From an uncultured Armatimonadetes bacterium (lineage in GTDB: Bacteria; Armatimonadota; Hebobacteria; Hebobacterales; Hebobacteraceae), in contig OY970296.1 in NCBI GenBank assembly GCA_963716175.1, positions 1,920,001 through 1,984,000 on the forward strand: a stretch of 64,000 bases of DNA, given 5' to 3'. The notes beneath the pieces were generated by a model, which did not search any database, was not told the origin of the DNA, and worked only from the letters and a program-made list of their open reading frames with translations. The first letter of the stretch is position 1. Each line of letters opens with the position of its first letter. The position numbers and the translations under genes are program-made. Positions 14,793-55,263 of the stretch are shown in pieces.

Positions 14793-16085
14793 TGTGCGGA
14801 CCGGTTACATGGGTAACGGATGTGCCGAGTACATAGGTAACACTTCTACTCCGCCTTCGGGCACTCCCCTAGTGTCAGGCGTTTGATCACCTGATGGCAG
14901 AAGAGCACCTCCACCAGGCCGTCGATATCAGTGGCGCGCACGGCCACCGGCTGACCGCGGAAGGCCTTGGAAACGGGCAGCAGACGCCCCCCGAAGTGCA
15001 CCTCGCCCCCACGCTGCACCTTGCGCACCGGCAGCCCCGGCGGGTACTGGATCGGCTCCAGCTGCGCGGGGTAGGCGCGCAGGCTGGGCTGGTAGCGACT
15101 TGCCGGCACCTCCAGCGCGAGCGCCTCGTGAGGGCGCAGGAAGTTATATTGCTCCCGCCACGGATCCAGGTGCGCCTGCAGGTGCTCCCCGTCTCGCCAC
15201 TGGTGCCGCGCCAGCAGCTCTCGCTGCAAGCTGCCATGGAAGCGTTCATCCTTGCCCACGGTCTGGGGATGGTAGGGCCGAGAGTGAGTCACGTATATCC
15301 CCAGCCGCATCAGCCACACCGCCAGCGCCCCATATGCGTCCGCGGCCAGATCTCCCCAGGGACCTCCATTGTCCGACAGCATCGCCTCCGGCACCCCATA
15401 GTGCCGGAAAGCGGCCACTAGCGCCGCCTGCACGGAGCACCCGTCCTGCTTGGGCAGCGCCTGCAGAGAGAGGGCAAAGCGAGAATGATCGTCCAGCACG
15501 CTCAGCACGTGCTGGGGACCCGTCTGCGTCGCTACCGGCGCCTTGAAGTCCATCTGCCAGAGGTCGTTGGGCAGTGGGCGCTCGAAACGCACCCAGGGGC
15601 GCTGACCCGCAGGCGAGTCCGCACCGATGAGCGCGTGCCGATGCAGGGTCGCGGTAATGGAGCTGGTGGCTGGCACGGGGTGGAGGCCCTGGTTGCGGAG
15701 CAGCCGGCGAAGCTTGCGGGCTCCCCAGCACGGGTGCGCCTGGCGGAGCGCCACGATTGCCTGCTGGGTGGCTGCCGGCAGTTGCGGGCGCCTCCGGTGG
15801 GGCCGGCGGGAGTGATCCCGCAAGCCCACTTCCCCGGCCTCAGCAAAGCGATAACACCATTTGTAGCCGATCCTGGGGCTGATGCCGAAGCGGCGGCACA
15901 GATCCCGAAACGGCACCCTCCCCTGCTGGGCGAACATCACAAACTCCCGTCGCTGCTGCTCCACGGTAACTGGCTCCCAGGGCATGGCCCCTCTCCTCTA
16001 GGAAGAGATGCATGCCTCTATAGTAACCGCTTGCCCGTTACCTATGTATCCGGTACGAGTGTTACCTATCTATCCAGTCTGTACA
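14793..16085 (-). mobile_element. IS481-family insertion sequence, copy 1 (1293 bp, 5-bp TSD CTCCC)
   Basis: TGT...ACA ends, two tandem ACATRGGTAAC-type units at each end, same length and translation as 53971-55263. Confidence 0.95.
14846..15985 (-). CDS. IS481-family DDE transposase
   Basis: MPW start, HTH, WQMDFK, LDDHSR, SDNG, HPQTVGKDERFH. Confidence 0.95.
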   Translation of the reverse strand: MPWEPVTVEQQRREFVMFAQQGRVPFRDLCRRFGISPRIGYKWCYRFAEAGEVGLRDHSRRPHRRRPQLPAATQQAIVALRQAHPCWGARKLRRLLRNQGLHPVPATSSITATLHRHALIGADSPAGQRPWVRFERPLPNDLWQMDFKAPVATQTGPQHVLSVLDDHSRFALSLQALPKQDGCSVQAALVAAFRHYGVPEAMLSDNGGPWGDLAADAYGALAVWLMRLGIYVTHSRPYHPQTVGKDERFHGSLQRELLARHQWRDGEHLQAHLDPWREQYNFLRPHEALALEVPASRYQPSLRAYPAQLEPIQYPPGLPVRKVQRGGEVHFGGRLLPVSKAFRGQPVAVRATDIDGLVEVLFCHQVIKRLTLGECPKAE

Positions 16086-32859: not shown

Positions 32860-33078
32860 AGCCGTTCGAGAACGCCCACCTGCTGCGCCACACCTTCATG
32901 CGCCTCTGGCGCATTCGCCACCCACGCCCTGCGCGCCCGGCCCAACCTGCGGGCGGTGCAGGAACTGCTGGGCCACGCCTGGGTGACCACGACCCAGCGC
33001 TACACTCACCTGGAGGTAGAGGACCTGCAGGCACAGCTGGCCGATCTCCCGGCCAACCGCTTACCGGGCGTCGGCTGA
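32860..33078 (+). pseudogene. Tyrosine recombinase (XerC/D-like) C-terminal remnant
   Basis: HLLRHTF | ATH...[22 protein letters not shown], frameshifted by a 19-bp hairpin insertion. Confidence 0.85.
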
Positions 33079-39472: not shown

Positions 39473-40351
39473 CTAGTGCACCGGGGTGCCCCACCTCGCC
39501 TTGTAGACATGCTCTCCCGCCCAGTTGACTACCCGATCGGGTTGCATGAGAAGCACTCGTTCAGCCCACCACTTCTCACCCCCCCCTTGGACATAGGCTA
39601 TCTGGCCAGTCACCGGGTTGGTCGAGATGCTGTTCACATGGCCGGTTTCTCTGAGCTGCGGATGCAGTTTGAAACTCCGCTTATCCCGGTCAAAGAGCCA
39701 GCAGTGACTGCCGGTCGTCACGGTCATCAGCGGGCTGTCTGGCACCGGATACAGGTCATGCCCTCCGCCTTCAGGGAGATCCACTATGAAGAACATCGCG
39801 AGCGAGGGATTACCTGAGTCCCAGTCTACCAGCCGGTAGGCCCTGATGTCGCGGTGCGCAAGTGCCCATAGGACTCCCCGGGCTTCATCCCATACAACCC
39901 CGTGTCCCTCGGGTAGTGCCGTGCTGAACAGCTCTTTCTCGGAGGTATTGGCATCGTAGATGATGAGCTGGTCGCAGTTCCGCGGTGGCCCGCTGCCCTC
40001 GTGACCCGAAGTGGCCACGGCCACCCGGCCTCCAGGCAGCAGGTCTGCCGAGTGGGCGTTCTCGGCCACAGCCCAGAAGGATGCTCTGCCCGTTCCTCGC
40101 TCCACCAGCGCCACGCCGGAACCTGAGGATGTGATGAGTATCCACTTCCCCCCGCCCAACGGCTTGCATTCGTCGGTGCTAGCGAACTGCCATTGCTTGA
40201 GTTCCGCGGGCAGTTCAGGGCAGTCCTTGGCCCGCCATCTCCACATCTTCTTTGGCTTCCCGTTCTCTTCCCGGGGAAGGTCGAGAATGTACACCTCATC
40301 CCCGCCGCACACTATCAGCTCCTGGGATGCTGCCGCTGTCTGGCCTCCCAC
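39473..40351 (-). CDS. DUF6528-like beta-propeller protein, 5' end truncated by IS3
   Basis: STDECKP, NAHSADLLP, GHGVVWD, GGHDL, YKARW; ORF starts exactly at the IS end. Confidence 0.7.
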   Translation of the reverse strand: MGGQTAAASQELIVCGGDEVYILDLPREENGKPKKMWRWRAKDCPELPAELKQWQFASTDECKPLGGGKWILITSSGSGVALVERGTGRASFWAVAENAHSADLLPGGRVAVATSGHEGSGPPRNCDQLIIYDANTSEKELFSTALPEGHGVVWDEARGVLWALAHRDIRAYRLVDWDSGNPSLAMFFIVDLPEGGGHDLYPVPDSPLMTVTTGSHCWLFDRDKRSFKLHPQLRETGHVNSISTNPVTGQIAYVQGGGEKWWAERVLLMQPDRVVNWAGEHVYKARWGTPVH

Positions 40352-42081
40352 TGTACGTCGTCAGCGATTCTGGGACAAAGGCCAAGCTACAGGGTGAGCT
40401 GATCTGAGTCGGTGTTCCTGCTCCTGGGCGGCGAAATGTACAAGCGAGAAAGGAGCAGGGAGATGGAGGAATCGCTGAGGGCCGATGGCAGTGAGGGGCT
40501 AGAGCAACCGGTGGTGAGCCCGGGGCCGGCTCGCAAGCGAGGGGAGACCCCGCGGCAGCAGATGCTACTCTGCGAAGTAGCTTCGCTACGTAGCACGAGT
40601 CCGGAAGGCCAAGGGTGTCACCCGTCGGCACTTCACCGCCGAGGACAAGATCCGGATCGTGATGGAGGGCATCCAAGGGGAGATCCCGGTCTCGGAGCTG
40701 TGCCGGCGGGAGCGGCTGCACACCACGGTCTATTACCGCTGGCTCAAGGACTTCCTGGAGGGGGGCAAGAAGCGGCTGCGAGGGGATGTGCTGCGGGAGG
40801 CGGGTCGGGAGGAAGTGGCGGCGCTGAAAGAGGAGAATGCCCGGCTCAAGTGGCTAGGCGCAAGCGCCGCCATCCCGGTCCACAGGACCTAGGGACAGTT
40901 GGTGGCGGACTATGCCCTTGACCTGATGGCGCTCAAAAAAAGTCTGATGGCGGAGCGATGACCAAACAGCGCCGTCGGGAGATTGTGGAGCTGGTGGCCA
41001 AGTCACCCCATACGGTGGCGGCGACAGTGGCTGAGATCGGGGTCTCCAAGAGCAGCTTCTACCGCTGGCGCGCCCGGATTGAGTCCGGCTGGAGGCCCCG
41101 GCTGAAGAAGGCGGTCTGGAATGAGTTGCGCCCAGAGGAGCGCCAAATCGTGCTCCAGCAGGCTCTGGCGCAGCCCCACCTGAGCGCCCGGGAGCTGGCC
41201 TGGTGGCTCTGCGACCACGCCAATTTCAGCGTTTCTGAGTCCACCGTGGCGCGCCTCCTGAAGGCCCACGGGCTGCTGCCTAGGCGGGGCCCCGAGCAAG
41301 AGCCGGCCGGGAAGGAGTGGCGCCACAAGACCCGCCGCATCAACCAGATCTGGCAGAGCGACGCCACCCGCTTTTTCATCCCGGGCTGGGGCCACTACTG
41401 GCTGGTGTCGGTGCTCGACGATGGCTAGGCCTGCGGCCGCCATGGCGGTCACCCTCGGTGACCTAGCCACTACTCCCGGCGCCTGCTGGCCTGGGAACTG
41501 GTATCCGACATCCAGGCGGAGAGCCTGGTGGCGGTGATCCAGCGGGCAGTGGAAGTCACCGGGGTGACCGCAGCGCCCCTGGTGGAGCGGCCGGCGGTGC
41601 TCACCGACAATGGCTCAGGCTACATCGGCAAGGTGATGCAGAAGTACCTGAAGGCCCTGGACCTGCGCCATCTGCGAGCCCGCTCCCATCATCCCCAGAC
41701 CACCGGCAAGCTTGCCCGCCTCTGGCGGGATCGAGCGGGTGCACCGCACGCTGAAGGATGACGTGGAGCTGGTGGTGCGGATGAGCCCGGGCGAACTGCG
41801 GGCAGCGATCGCCCAGTTCGTGGCTTACTACAACTCCCAGCGCTACCACGAGGTTTACCCGCCTCTGGCGAGGCGCTGCACAACGTCACCCCGGACGACG
41901 TCTGGTTCGGCCGCAGGGAGGAGATTCTGGCCCGGCGAAGAGCGCTCCAGATCCGCACCGTGATCGCGCGCCGGGAACGCTACCGCCGGCTGAGGGGCCA
42001 GTGCAAGAATACAAGAGCGGGAACACCGGAGGTGTAGCTAACGCAAGACCCCTCTTGTCCCAGTCACGCTGACGCCGGACA
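40352..42081 (+). mobile_element. Inactivated IS3-family element
   Basis: IRs TGTACGTCGTCAGCGATTCTGGGACAA / TTGTCCCAGTCACGCTGACGCCGGACA; orfA FTAEDKIRIV; AAAAAAAG slip site; WQSD, TDNG, IER; five micro-insertions. Confidence 0.88.
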
Positions 42082-42446
42082 ACTCGTGGCTCCAGTTTCC
42101 CCCGGGAGACCGCCCGCCGCACCACCTGCGTATGCCGCCGTGTCATCACGGCCCATTGCTCTCGCTGGCCTGCCGCCCGAAGGCCCGCCCGTCACCTGAC
42201 TCCTGGGCCGGTTTGGTGGGCCGATTCGGCGGCTCCATTCGGAAAGCGGCCAACGGCCGGCCTCAGCAGAAGCGCTCCTGGGGCATCCTGAACCCCGTTG
42301 GGCCCATTGGGCCGGATGGGCCGGTTTCTGCGGCATGAAAGACTGCTAAGCGGCGAGGAGATCGGTCCCCTTATGCGAGCGCCCGTTGGCCATGAGGGTT
42401 TCGATATCTGCATTTCGTAGGGAATTGTTGCCCACCGCGAGCTTCG

Positions 42447-53970: not shown

Positions 53971-55263
53971 TGTGCGGACCGGTTACATGGGTAACGGATG
54001 TGCCGAGTACATAGGTAACACTTCTACTCCGCCTTCGGGCACTCCCCTAGTGTCAGGCGTTTGATCACCTGATGGCAGAAGAGCACCTCCACCAGGCCGT
54101 CGATATCAGTGGCGCGCACGGCCACCGGCTGACCGCGGAAGGCCTTGGAAACGGGCAGCAGACGCCCCCCGAAGTGCACCTCGCCCCCACGCTGCACCTT
54201 GCGCACCGGCAGCCCCGGCGGGTACTGGATCGGCTCCAGCTGCGCGGGGTAGGCGCGCAGGCTGGGCTGGTAGCGACTTGCCGGCACCTCCAGCGCGAGC
54301 GCCTCGTGAGGGCGCAGGAAGTTATATTGCTCCCGCCACGGATCCAGGTGCGCCTGCAGGTGCTCCCCGTCTCGCCACTGGTGCCGCGCCAGCAGCTCTC
54401 GCTGCAAGCTGCCATGGAAGCGTTCATCCTTGCCCACGGTCTGGGGATGGTAGGGCCGAGAGTGAGTCACGTATATCCCCAGCCGCATCAGCCACACCGC
54501 CAGCGCCCCATATGCGTCCGCGGCCAGATCTCCCCAGGGACCTCCATTGTCCGACAGCATCGCCTCCGGCACCCCATAGTGCCGGAAAGCGGCCACTAGC
54601 GCCGCCTGCACGGAGCACCCGTCCTGCTTGGGCAGCGCCTGCAGAGAGAGGGCAAAGCGAGAATGATCGTCCAGCACGCTCAGCACGTGCTGGGGACCCG
54701 TCTGCGTCGCTACCGGCGCCTTGAAGTCCATCTGCCAGAGGTCGTTGGGCAGTGGGCGCTCGAAACGCACCCAGGGGCGCTGACCCGCAGGCGAGTCCGC
54801 ACCGATGAGCGCGTGCCGATGCAGGGTCGCGGTAATGGAGCTGGTGGCTGGCACGGGGTGGAGGCCCTGGTTGCGGAGCAGCCGGCGAAGCTTGCGGGCT
54901 CCCCAGCACGGGTGCGCCTGGCGGAGCGCCACGATTGCCTGCTGGGTGGCTGCCGGCAGTTGCGGGCGCCTCCGGTGGGGCCGGCGGGAGTGATCCCGCA
55001 AGCCCACTTCCCCGGCCTCAGCAAAGCGATAACACCATTTGTAGCCGATCCTGGGGCTGATGCCGAAGCGGCGGCACAGATCCCGAAACGGCACCCTCCC
55101 CTGCTGGGCGAACATCACAAACTCCCGTCGCTGCTGCTCCACGGTAACTGGCTCCCAGGGCATGGCCCCTCTCCTCTAGGAAGAGATGCATGCCTCTATA
55201 GTAACCGCTTGCCCGTTACCTATGTATCCGGTACGAGTGTTACCTATCTATCCAGTCTGTACA
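53971..55263 (-). mobile_element. IS481-family insertion sequence, copy 2 (1293 bp, TSD CTCCC)
   Basis: Same ends, length and translation as copy 1. Confidence 0.95.
54024..55163 (-). CDS. IS481-family DDE transposase
   Basis: Same 379-aa protein as 14846..15985. Confidence 0.95.
   Translation of the reverse strand: MPWEPVTVEQQRREFVMFAQQGRVPFRDLCRRFGISPRIGYKWCYRFAEAGEVGLRDHSRRPHRRRPQLPAATQQAIVALRQAHPCWGARKLRRLLRNQGLHPVPATSSITATLHRHALIGADSPAGQRPWVRFERPLPNDLWQMDFKAPVATQTGPQHVLSVLDDHSRFALSLQALPKQDGCSVQAALVAAFRHYGVPEAMLSDNGGPWGDLAADAYGALAVWLMRLGIYVTHSRPYHPQTVGKDERFHGSLQRELLARHQWRDGEHLQAHLDPWREQYNFLRPHEALALEVPASRYQPSLRAYPAQLEPIQYPPGLPVRKVQRGGEVHFGGRLLPVSKAFRGQPVAVRATDIDGLVEVLFCHQVIKRLTLGECPKAE

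Follow-up and report, generated by a model that had tools for sequence, protein, structure and literature searches.

In the 64,000-nucleotide (nt) window analysed here, which covers positions 1,920,001 to 1,984,000 of the forward strand of contig OY970296.1 and belongs to the genome of an uncultured wetland Armatimonadota bacterium (a single contig of 4.56 Mb with 66% G+C), an insertion sequence (IS) of the IS3/IS481 type is interrupted by five hairpin inserts of 19 to 48 nt. When these inserts were removed in silico, both open reading frames (ORFs) of the element, orfA and orfB, were open, without a single stop or frameshift, so that the micro-inserts are the sole lesions of the window copy. 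Judged from the aligned sequences, the inserts recur at exact nucleotide sites in this IS family, and the backbone phylogeny disallows a single inheritance event. The presence of the same inserts at the same spots in distantly related IS copies suggests minute mobile elements that home to exact sites.

The limits of the inserts were derived from a MAFFT alignment of the window copy with six IS copies on metagenome contigs (L031, L032, L033, L041, L042 and L045), to which it aligns from end to end with 81-86% backbone identity. A second line of evidence came from tblastn with P0001, an intact homologue of 330 amino acids (aa) that is 88% identical to the window transposase over the first 156 residues. 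The six aligned copies are intact and lack the five inserts, except for L041, which carries one at the i2 site, and the tblastn matches show breaks of the coding text between VLDD and YSRR and between TGK and IER, among others. The element, its two ORFs and the inserts (i1 to i5) are as follows.

40352 to 42081, forward strand: IS3/IS481-type IS, 1730 nt with the inserts and 1561 nt without them.
40463 to 40961, forward strand: orfA (HTH_Tnp_1), interrupted by i1 and i2; 139 codons after insert removal.
40958 to 42037, forward strand: orfB, the transposase (HTH_23/HTH_32 plus rve plus rve_3), interrupted by i3, i4 and i5; 331 codons after insert removal.
40563 to 40599, forward strand: i1, family A hairpin, 37 nt; frameshift in orfA.
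40851 to 40895, forward strand: i2, family B', 45 nt, one TGGC..GCCA hairpin unit and one TCCC..GGGA unit; in frame, with a TAG stop.
41422 to 41469, forward strand: i3, family B, 48 nt, a REPIN-like doublet formed by a pair of 24-nt hairpin units in inverted orientation; keeps the frame and brings in TAG stops; limits ambiguous by 1 nt.
41711 to 41729, forward strand: i4, family C hairpin, 19 nt (CTTG followed by CCCGCC TCT GGCGGG); frameshift directly before the catalytic Glu; limits ambiguous by 1 nt.
41853 to 41872, forward strand: i5, family C variant, 20 nt; frameshift after YHE; 4-nt ambiguity (CGAG).

Together the inserts amount to 169 nt. An earlier reading of this DNA, made from the letters alone and referred to below as the sequence-only reading, had described five inserts from three families in a single dead IS, each of which adds a stop or a frameshift and whose removal restores the transposase text. 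All of this was borne out: the alignment to intact homologues, the empty sites and the tblastn breaks agree that the inserts are real, i1, i4 and i5 shift the frame, i2 and i3 bring TAG into it, and orfA and orfB are fully open without them. The limits given in that reading were exact for i2, i3 and i4, but i1 had been placed at 40565-40594 and the position of i5 was off by 1 nt. The inserts i3, i4 and i5 are predicted to disable the transposase, because the segment that lies between i4 and i5 and contains the catalytic Glu is shifted out of frame. The insert i2 looks old and harmless to the IS: it diverges together with the backbone, L041 keeps open frames in spite of it, and orfB has its own ATG and DNA-binding domains. 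The other four, i1, i3, i4 and i5, we infer to be recent arrivals.

All five inserts fold as DNA hairpins (z -2.5 to -3.5). No target-site duplication, by which a MITE (a miniature transposable element with inverted repeats) would be recognised, was found around i1 to i4, and i5 shows only the 4-nt CGAG ambiguity. A search of 40200-42200 with the covariance models of Rfam 15 gave a single match with E=0.85, far under the gathering score. Family A (i1) consists of TGCTACTCTGCGAAGTAGC, a spacer of 0-30 nt, TTCGCTACG, A or T, and AGCACGAG. Family B (i3) is a doublet of two inverted 24-nt units, each of the form TGGC-TA-GG, stem-loop, CC-GCCA, which is the doublet arrangement of REPINs, an arrangement not seen in family C. 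In family B' (i2), one unit of the TGGC type is paired with a TCCC...GGGA variant. Family C (i4 and i5) reads CTTG(C/T)CCGCC-TCN-GGCGGG, with i5 and a 19-mer in a tyrosine-recombinase remnant as variants. The genome has 112 B-type units with 80 distinct inner segments between them, and 78% of the units are paired maximally for their length compared to 10% of shuffles; on this count the B-type hairpin is preserved while its sequence changes, and the stems covary. The HIP1 repeat known from cyanobacteria was considered as a context and rejected: GCGATCGC occurs 388 times, by a rough estimate only about twice the expectation at 66% GC.

The sequence-only reading had also raised the possibility of an artefact. 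In order to check the inserts against independent data, Logan contigs from four runs of four studies were placed on the region, with uncovered parts taken as uninformative. One contig of run X3 spans 41310-41474 without any difference, i3 included, and in a second X3 contig 41421 joins directly to CTACTCC..., which represents the empty i3 site. Two contigs of run X5 omit exactly 40851-40895 and thus show the empty i2 site in a diverged copy, and i5 is covered, unchanged, by contigs from X1 and X3. Numerous contigs of all four runs terminate at 40563 and 40599, the ends of the dispersed family A. Inserts are moreover present in the independent metagenome contigs L041, L066 and L048. With the inserts unchanged in contigs of other studies and empty-site alleles alongside them, we give an assembly or sequencing artefact virtually no credence.

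Evidence for the recurrence of the inserts comes from 32 metagenomic loci in which more than 1000 nt of the IS are represented. BLAST-anchored calls placed micro-inserts of the three families in three of them (L041, L048 and L066), and eight further loci show length differences of 15-109 nt, mostly in one variable protein region. L041 carries a B' element at the i2 site that is identical to the i2 of the window at 38 of 45 positions, with both sides of one stem altered (CGC..GCG to CCT..AGG); apart from that insert, the ORFs of L041 are open, and the ratio of nonsynonymous to synonymous substitution rates (dN/dS) between the window copy and L041 is 0.19-0.26. In L048, the backbone of which is only 70% identical, a 20-nt variant of i5 occupies the i5 site and retains the hairpin by a compensatory change of a C-G to a T-A pair. 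L066, a decaying copy that has lost its start codon, contains i1, i3, i4 and i5 at positions identical to those in the window and, in addition, an L041-like i2 with a nested element, a second copy of family A and hairpins of 20 and 25 nt. The nested element is about 100 nt long and lies in the CTAG of the B' element, opposite window position 40889, with TA on both sides.

The backbone of L066 is 85.2% identical to that of the window copy (1327/1557 positions) and 90.8% identical to that of L041, and it is nearer to L041 in all six segments between the inserts. In contrast to these backbone values, i1, i3, i4 and i5 are identical between the window and L066 at 123 of 124 nt (binomial P=5e-8); for i2 the figure is 32/39, a divergence that keeps pace with the backbone. 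In the main backbone tree, which was calculated from 23 copies and 1557 columns after removal of the inserts, L066 groups with L041 (SH-like approximate likelihood ratio test, SH-aLRT, 98), then with L033/L034 (98) and only then with the window copy (93). The approximately unbiased (AU) test, applied to groups that were named after the alignments had been seen, rejected one clade of the window copy and L066 (p=0.001) as well as one clade of the three i2-bearing copies (p=0.014). Fragmentary IS copies extend this pattern. A fragment at genome position 4551320 is 99.3% identical to L041 over 292 nt and yet bears i5, which is absent from L041, and a fragment in G016, a genome from another family of the class, is 80% identical and contains i5 in a form with two differences. 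On a tree of 44 copies and 326 columns, the four i5-bearing rows require 3 changes, with AU p=0.013 against one clade; the trees stem from quick searches, and these 326 columns make a short alignment. The recurrent sites fall in the most conserved DNA of the transposase gene.

Next to the i3 site, the native IS sequence at 41470-41497 (..TCCCGGCGCCTGCTGGCCTGGGA..) is similar to a B' element's second hairpin unit, and this could be a pseudo-site that attracts the element or a chance likeness in GC-rich DNA. After insertion of i3, the layout resembles the mosaic arrays of genomes G008 and G012. The repeats of G008 and G012 that had appeared to match the IS flank beyond i3 turned out to be the adjoining hairpin unit of such arrays and not IS sequence.

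A census of the genome yielded 101 complete copies (A 18, B 22, B' 33, C 22, i5-type 3 and recombinase-type 3), after exclusion of 47 matches to 12-nt cores alone and two left-arm-only matches of family A as probable chance matches. Outside the window IS there are 96 copies: 81 in intergenic DNA, 4 on gene edges and 11 within predicted genes, classes that are approximate since the gene map (3832 genes, 85% coding) is home-made. Many copies occupy the loops of larger repetitive extragenic palindromic (REP) elements headed by GTAG, and B' copies are mostly parts of larger mosaic arrays. The flanks carry a purine at -1 in 20/22 copies of C and 22/22 copies of B. Within the phylum, the arm of family A was found in 4 and the B-type unit in 8 of 201 sampled genomes, with 24 matches of the former in the source genome and 67, 36, 24 and 23 matches of the latter in the source genome, G016, G008 and G012, respectively, at no more than one match per genome for reversed-pattern controls. 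The families are confined to one class of Armatimonadota. Two further observations were made on the repeats of this genome. At 1774779-1775427, a unit of 162 nt is repeated five times in tandem, each time with a family B element and identical flanks. A fourth small hairpin family (..CCTGAGCGAAG.CGAAGG..), outside the census, occurs as an insert that distinguishes paralogues at genome positions 4004519, 3806978 and 655917, and the 25-nt insert of L066 belongs to it.

The density of inserts in the window IS (5 in 1.561 kb, or 3.2/kb) is 25 times that of intergenic DNA (0.126/kb), with a Poisson P of 2e-6, or 9e-4 after correction for 432 bins, values that exclude chance. A second comparison with intergenic DNA concerned the neighbourhoods of mobile genes: 9 of the 101 copies fall into the 92 kb that surround the full set of 24 rve and 28 integrase matches in the genome, roughly as dense as in intergenic DNA, and the families therefore have no general preference for mobile genes. 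Other copies in mobile genes do exist. Fragments of the same IS family carry i5 at genome position 4551410, i4 at 2116473 and family A at 2120271, and a C-like 19-mer lies within another rve gene at 2812023. Apart from the five inserts, the sequence-only reading had found one such insert in the window, and no further one came to light.

32898 to 32916, forward strand: C-like hairpin of 19 nt in a tyrosine-recombinase remnant; same site in the paralogues at genome positions 2102638 and 2113932.

In all three paralogues, the 19-mer splits the Pfam match at profile position 135-136. Indels between paralogues were found by parsing gaps inside high-scoring segment pairs of repeated regions. A degenerate B'-like element of 45 nt is present at 2242654-2242698 in one tyrosine-recombinase paralogue and absent from the others; it falls within a stop-free Phage_integrase match and could represent an in-frame copy that a mobile gene tolerates. 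Many of the rve matches occupy long open frames. Four of them share identical scores and 383-aa frames, two in the window (15266-15571 and 54444-54749, both on the reverse strand) and two at genome positions 1726034 and 1904952, and probably represent a young and active IS of another family; the census has no A, B or C element beside these four copies.

Copies are also found in and between ordinary genes. According to Pfam matches of the copy-bearing predicted genes, B' elements lie in mtnA, in a ferredoxin-domain gene and in mutL, and family A elements in lhr, in a multihaem cytochrome gene and in a 480-aa ORF without Pfam match. The copy in mtnA corresponds to 16 extra residues, in frame, in comparison with the solved homologue 1t9k, and the mtnA orthologues of G005, G003 and G010, which lack the insert, are 16-18 residues shorter. 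Similarly, the copy in lhr adds 15 residues, in frame, between helicase motifs in comparison with 5v9x. Operon spacers carry a B' element between hisA and hisF and a C element between tgt and an HD-domain gene. Mobile genes are therefore not the only places in which the elements are found. At the junction of hisA and hisF, which is filled by the B' element (3445124-3445174), the hisA frame continues for about 20 additional residues to the TAG of the element and is followed immediately by the ATG of hisF. The mutL ORF with the B' copy (4499639-4499687, L116) matches the middle and C-terminal MutL domains but not the N-terminal ATPase domain, which may mean that mutL is damaged; flanks nearly identical to those of this B' copy occur at 2406366 and 3286063 and suggest a larger composite repeat.

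The explanation that we favour combines three statements: the IS is interrupted only by five tiny palindromic mobile elements, these elements move to exact sites, and their movement relies on an HUH/RAYT mechanism. We hold the descriptive part with high confidence, see site-preferential insertion rather than conversion as about evenly poised, and put forward the RAYT mechanism tentatively, with rather more doubt than belief; taken as a whole, the explanation could go either way. In this mechanism, the elements, REP/REPIN-like in our best reading, would move as single-stranded hairpins that are cut and pasted by HUH/RAYT-type enzymes, RAYT standing for REP-associated tyrosine transposase. The single-strand HUH mode would lead to seamless joints and require a short sequence-specific target. 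Such chemistry, with no duplication and a short target, would make a few conserved motifs of the transposase gene hot spots, and an element resident in one IS copy would land at the same spot in another. Five genes of the Y1_Tnp (RAYT-like) type, which have HUH and Tyr motifs, are present in the genome, and GTAG-headed REPs flank every one of them. In one of these REPs, 186 nt from a RAYT match, the loop is occupied by a family C hairpin, and the REPs next to another RAYT and its orthologue in G010 have C-like CTTG...TCN hairpins at their tips. At the orthologous RAYT locus of G010, one REP carries a B' element in its loop.

Several observations weigh against this explanation. None of the RAYT genes has plain copies of A, B or C beside it, and the GTAG/CGTC tag of classical REPs is absent from all three families: as delimited by the empty sites, A, B and C begin with TGCTAC, TGGCTAGG and CTTG/GTTTA, respectively, and it is other repeat families of the genome that bear GTAG. 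Y1_Tnp genes are present in 17 of 21 relatives, including ones without these families, and the co-occurrence of RAYT genes and families is therefore uninformative. Apart from the purine at -1, the flanks of families A and C show no conserved target of 4-5 nt. The closest other genome copy to i3 is only 89.6% identical, and the i5 pattern has three genome matches at up to two mismatches, of which two were inspected and both lie in IS copies; these findings suit recombination between copies as well as transposition. At three positions 14-16 nt upstream of i5, L066 matches the window and not L041, which is a possible trace of co-conversion. For three of the i5 copies, the AU test against one clade reached only p=0.066. 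The naming of the AU groups after inspection of the alignments and the approximate context classes of the census belong on the same side.

In the main rival, each insert arose once and spread among IS copies by short-patch gene conversion, or the backbones were overwritten by intact copies, with tracts that halted at heterologies. The two i5-bearing copies of the source genome could have exchanged sequence in one cell, the matches of i3 and i5 and the window-like positions upstream of i5 in L066 suit such exchange, and the divergence of i2 in step with the backbone is expected if conversion traverses inserts shared by both partners. The flanks of L066 are, however, L041-like 5-28 nt from each insert, so that conversion would need four separate and very short patches, and a process that overwrote all six inter-insert segments, each of them nearer to L041 than to the window copy, but left four inserts untouched would be unparsimonious. 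Free copies identical to i1 and i4 exist in the genome, so both can be ordinary insertions. On balance, we consider conversion rather unlikely and rate site-preferential insertion higher. The reading that a long-dead IS merely collected inserts, shared ones reflecting descent of dead copies that were possibly mobilised in trans, draws on the intergenic position of 81 of the 96 copies, where selection is weak, on the intergenic density around mobile elements overall, and on the decaying L066, which has the five inserts plus three more and a nested element. We nevertheless find it quite improbable: the five inserts are unaccompanied by point nonsense mutations or indel lesions, their density is 25 times the intergenic one, inserts that are identical at 123 of 124 nt sit on 85% identical backbones, shared descent of the window copy and L066 is rejected by the AU test, and the fragment at 4551320 carries i5 on a backbone that is nearly that of the i5-free L041.

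Two further readings assign the inserts a function. In one, the inserts are non-lethal, being removed seamlessly at the DNA level or skipped in expression, and act as reversible off-switches under selection. In line with this, the ORFs of the window copy and of the i2-bearing L041 are otherwise intact with the dN/dS given above, the i2-bearing copies do not form one clade, which fits a loss of i2 from L033/L034, and the i5 variant of L048 has kept its hairpin on a 70%-identical backbone. Translational bypass elements (T4 gene 60, the byps of yeast mitochondria) have matching take-off and landing codons around the gap, and i5 indeed has a flanking GAG and a GAG at its own end; no such pair is present at i4 (AAG...GGG) or at the i5 variant of L048 (GAG...ATG). 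Splicing of hairpins of 19-48 nt is not known in bacteria, no same-strain contig shows a seamless loss, the empty sites seen belonging to diverged copies, and the separate ATG and DNA-binding domains of orfB may suffice to make i2 harmless, all of which makes a reversible switch improbable. In the other reading, a dedicated system of the host or of an element directs the hairpins against mobile-element genes as a means of silencing. The recurrence at exact sites in conserved transposase motifs, the C-like hairpin at one site in three tyrosine-recombinase paralogues and the C-like 19-nt insert in the rve gene at 2812023 would fit such targeting. The 92 kb of rve and integrase neighbourhoods are, however, at intergenic density, many rve matches lie in long open frames with none of the three families beside them, housekeeping genes are also struck, and no guide or effector gene was identified; we regard this reading as highly improbable. 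The sequence-only reading had offered two options, a neutral build-up wherever selection is absent or preferential hits on mobile-element genes, and neither fits alone. Neutral build-up is right in that the elements are retained where they are tolerated and fails on the inserts being the only lesions, on their density and on the recurrence of their sites; preferential hits are seen as site-exact recurrence within this IS family and not in mobile neighbourhoods at large. That interpretation is thus partly supported.

The host element has further features that bear on its classification.

40352 to 40381, forward strand: left terminal inverted repeat (TGTACGTCGTCAGCG...CTGGGACAA), from sequence inspection; conserved across the alignment.
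42052 to 42081, forward strand: right terminal inverted repeat (...TTGTCCCAG..CGCTGACGCCGGACA), from sequence inspection and the alignment.
40935 to 40942, forward strand: A AAA AAA G motif near the end of orfA, candidate -1 frameshift site; kept in 7/7 aligned copies.

The ends of the IS read TGTACG...GGACA, in agreement with the TG...CA ends of the IS3 family. The ATG of orfB at 40958 overlaps the TGA of orfA, in the -1 frame relative to orfA, which is the two-ORF layout of IS3 elements, and the A AAA AAA G motif is accordingly a candidate for the -1 frameshift site, a function suggested by what is known of that family. Pfam searches with the ORF pieces of the window IS gave HTH_Tnp_1, HTH_32, rve and rve_3. 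P0001 scored 139.7 bits on the NCBIfam model IS3 (cut-off 160) and 174.1 bits on IS481 (cut-off 224); because it stays below both cut-offs, we use the label 'IS3/IS481-type with IS3-like two-ORF layout'. The dN/dS values between the window IS and six relatives are 0.18-0.36. No target-site duplication of 3-4 bp, as is typical of IS3, was found at the window copy, which is flanked by CAC and ACT. A later rearrangement is possible in view of an identical left end elsewhere: the 140 nt at genome position 1071443-1071582 (reverse strand) are 100% identical to the left end of the IS (window 40352-40491) and stand alone as an end, a hint that a sister copy took part in a recent deletion or recombination. 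Immediately to the left of the IS, an ORF of 292 aa (window 39473-40351, reverse strand) has its GTG start exactly at the IS end, and the insertion of the IS may have removed the true start.

Tiny hairpin repeats are usually regarded as inert spacer. Here, they act as insertion mutagens, with recurrent sites in a transposase gene and with copies in housekeeping proteins. If the site preference is true, they would constitute a natural system of sequence-directed insertion of 19-48 nt of DNA and a new layer of conflict, in which parasites of parasites silence insertion sequences. It would also carry a warning for annotation, since transposase 'pseudogenes' and odd loops in conserved proteins of these lineages may be insertions of micro-elements. 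If, instead, short-patch conversion is true, the case would still be a clean example of tiny heterologies that spread among dispersed repeats. A more far-reaching idea, which we think unlikely, is that the hairpins are hyperparasites of IS3-type elements, which would recognise a few conserved transposase motifs, pass seamlessly from one IS copy to the corresponding spot in another, home without an enzyme gene of their own and also be able to leave, and thereby switch insertion sequences off and on across the entire class.

Among known systems, REP and REPIN elements with their RAYT (HUH Y1) transposases (Bertels and Rainey 2011, PMC3116915; Di Nocera et al. 2013, PMC3733652), RPE and SDR come nearest to the families described here. 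Like these, the families described here are short GC-rich hairpins that are repeated and mostly extragenic, form doublets of inverted units (B) and lack target-site duplications; the genome has RAYT genes flanked by hairpin repeats, and family C matches the apical hairpin of RAYT-flanking REPs. Unlike these, A, B and C carry CTAG, CTAC/GTAG inside, or CTTG rather than the GTAG/CGTC tag, reach only 18-33 copies per family, have no RAYT flanked by plain copies, and lie within genes and at recurrent exact sites of an IS. Small dispersed repeats (SDR) of heterocystous cyanobacteria, reportedly the subject of work by Elhai and colleagues in 2008, are said to be mobile repeats of about 20-30 nt in genes, in mobile elements and in each other; they belong to another phylum and have other sequences than the families found here. 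IS200/IS605-type elements span hundreds of bases and insert 3' of a defined tetra- or pentanucleotide, in contrast to the families here, for which no conserved target flank was seen. What the two share is the hairpin and a seamless insertion without duplication, and a short sequence-specific target such as theirs would account for exact hot spots. These single-strand 'peel and paste' elements and their palindrome-associated derivatives are treated in PMC6006769. Rickettsia palindromic elements (RPE), which are covered in a review of MITEs (PMC10969869), are palindromic repeats tolerated in frame in unrelated housekeeping genes, just as our elements are in mtnA and lhr, but they are about 150 bp long and encode a conserved peptide, whereas the elements here measure 19-48 nt, occur in a free-living Armatimonadota lineage and also break genes through frameshifts or stops. 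No description of hairpin repeats at identical sites of diverged IS copies was found in the titles and abstracts of the literature searched. The elements are thus set apart from REP/REPIN, RPE and SDR by their tags, their small size, their low copy number and their recurrence at exact sites of an IS.

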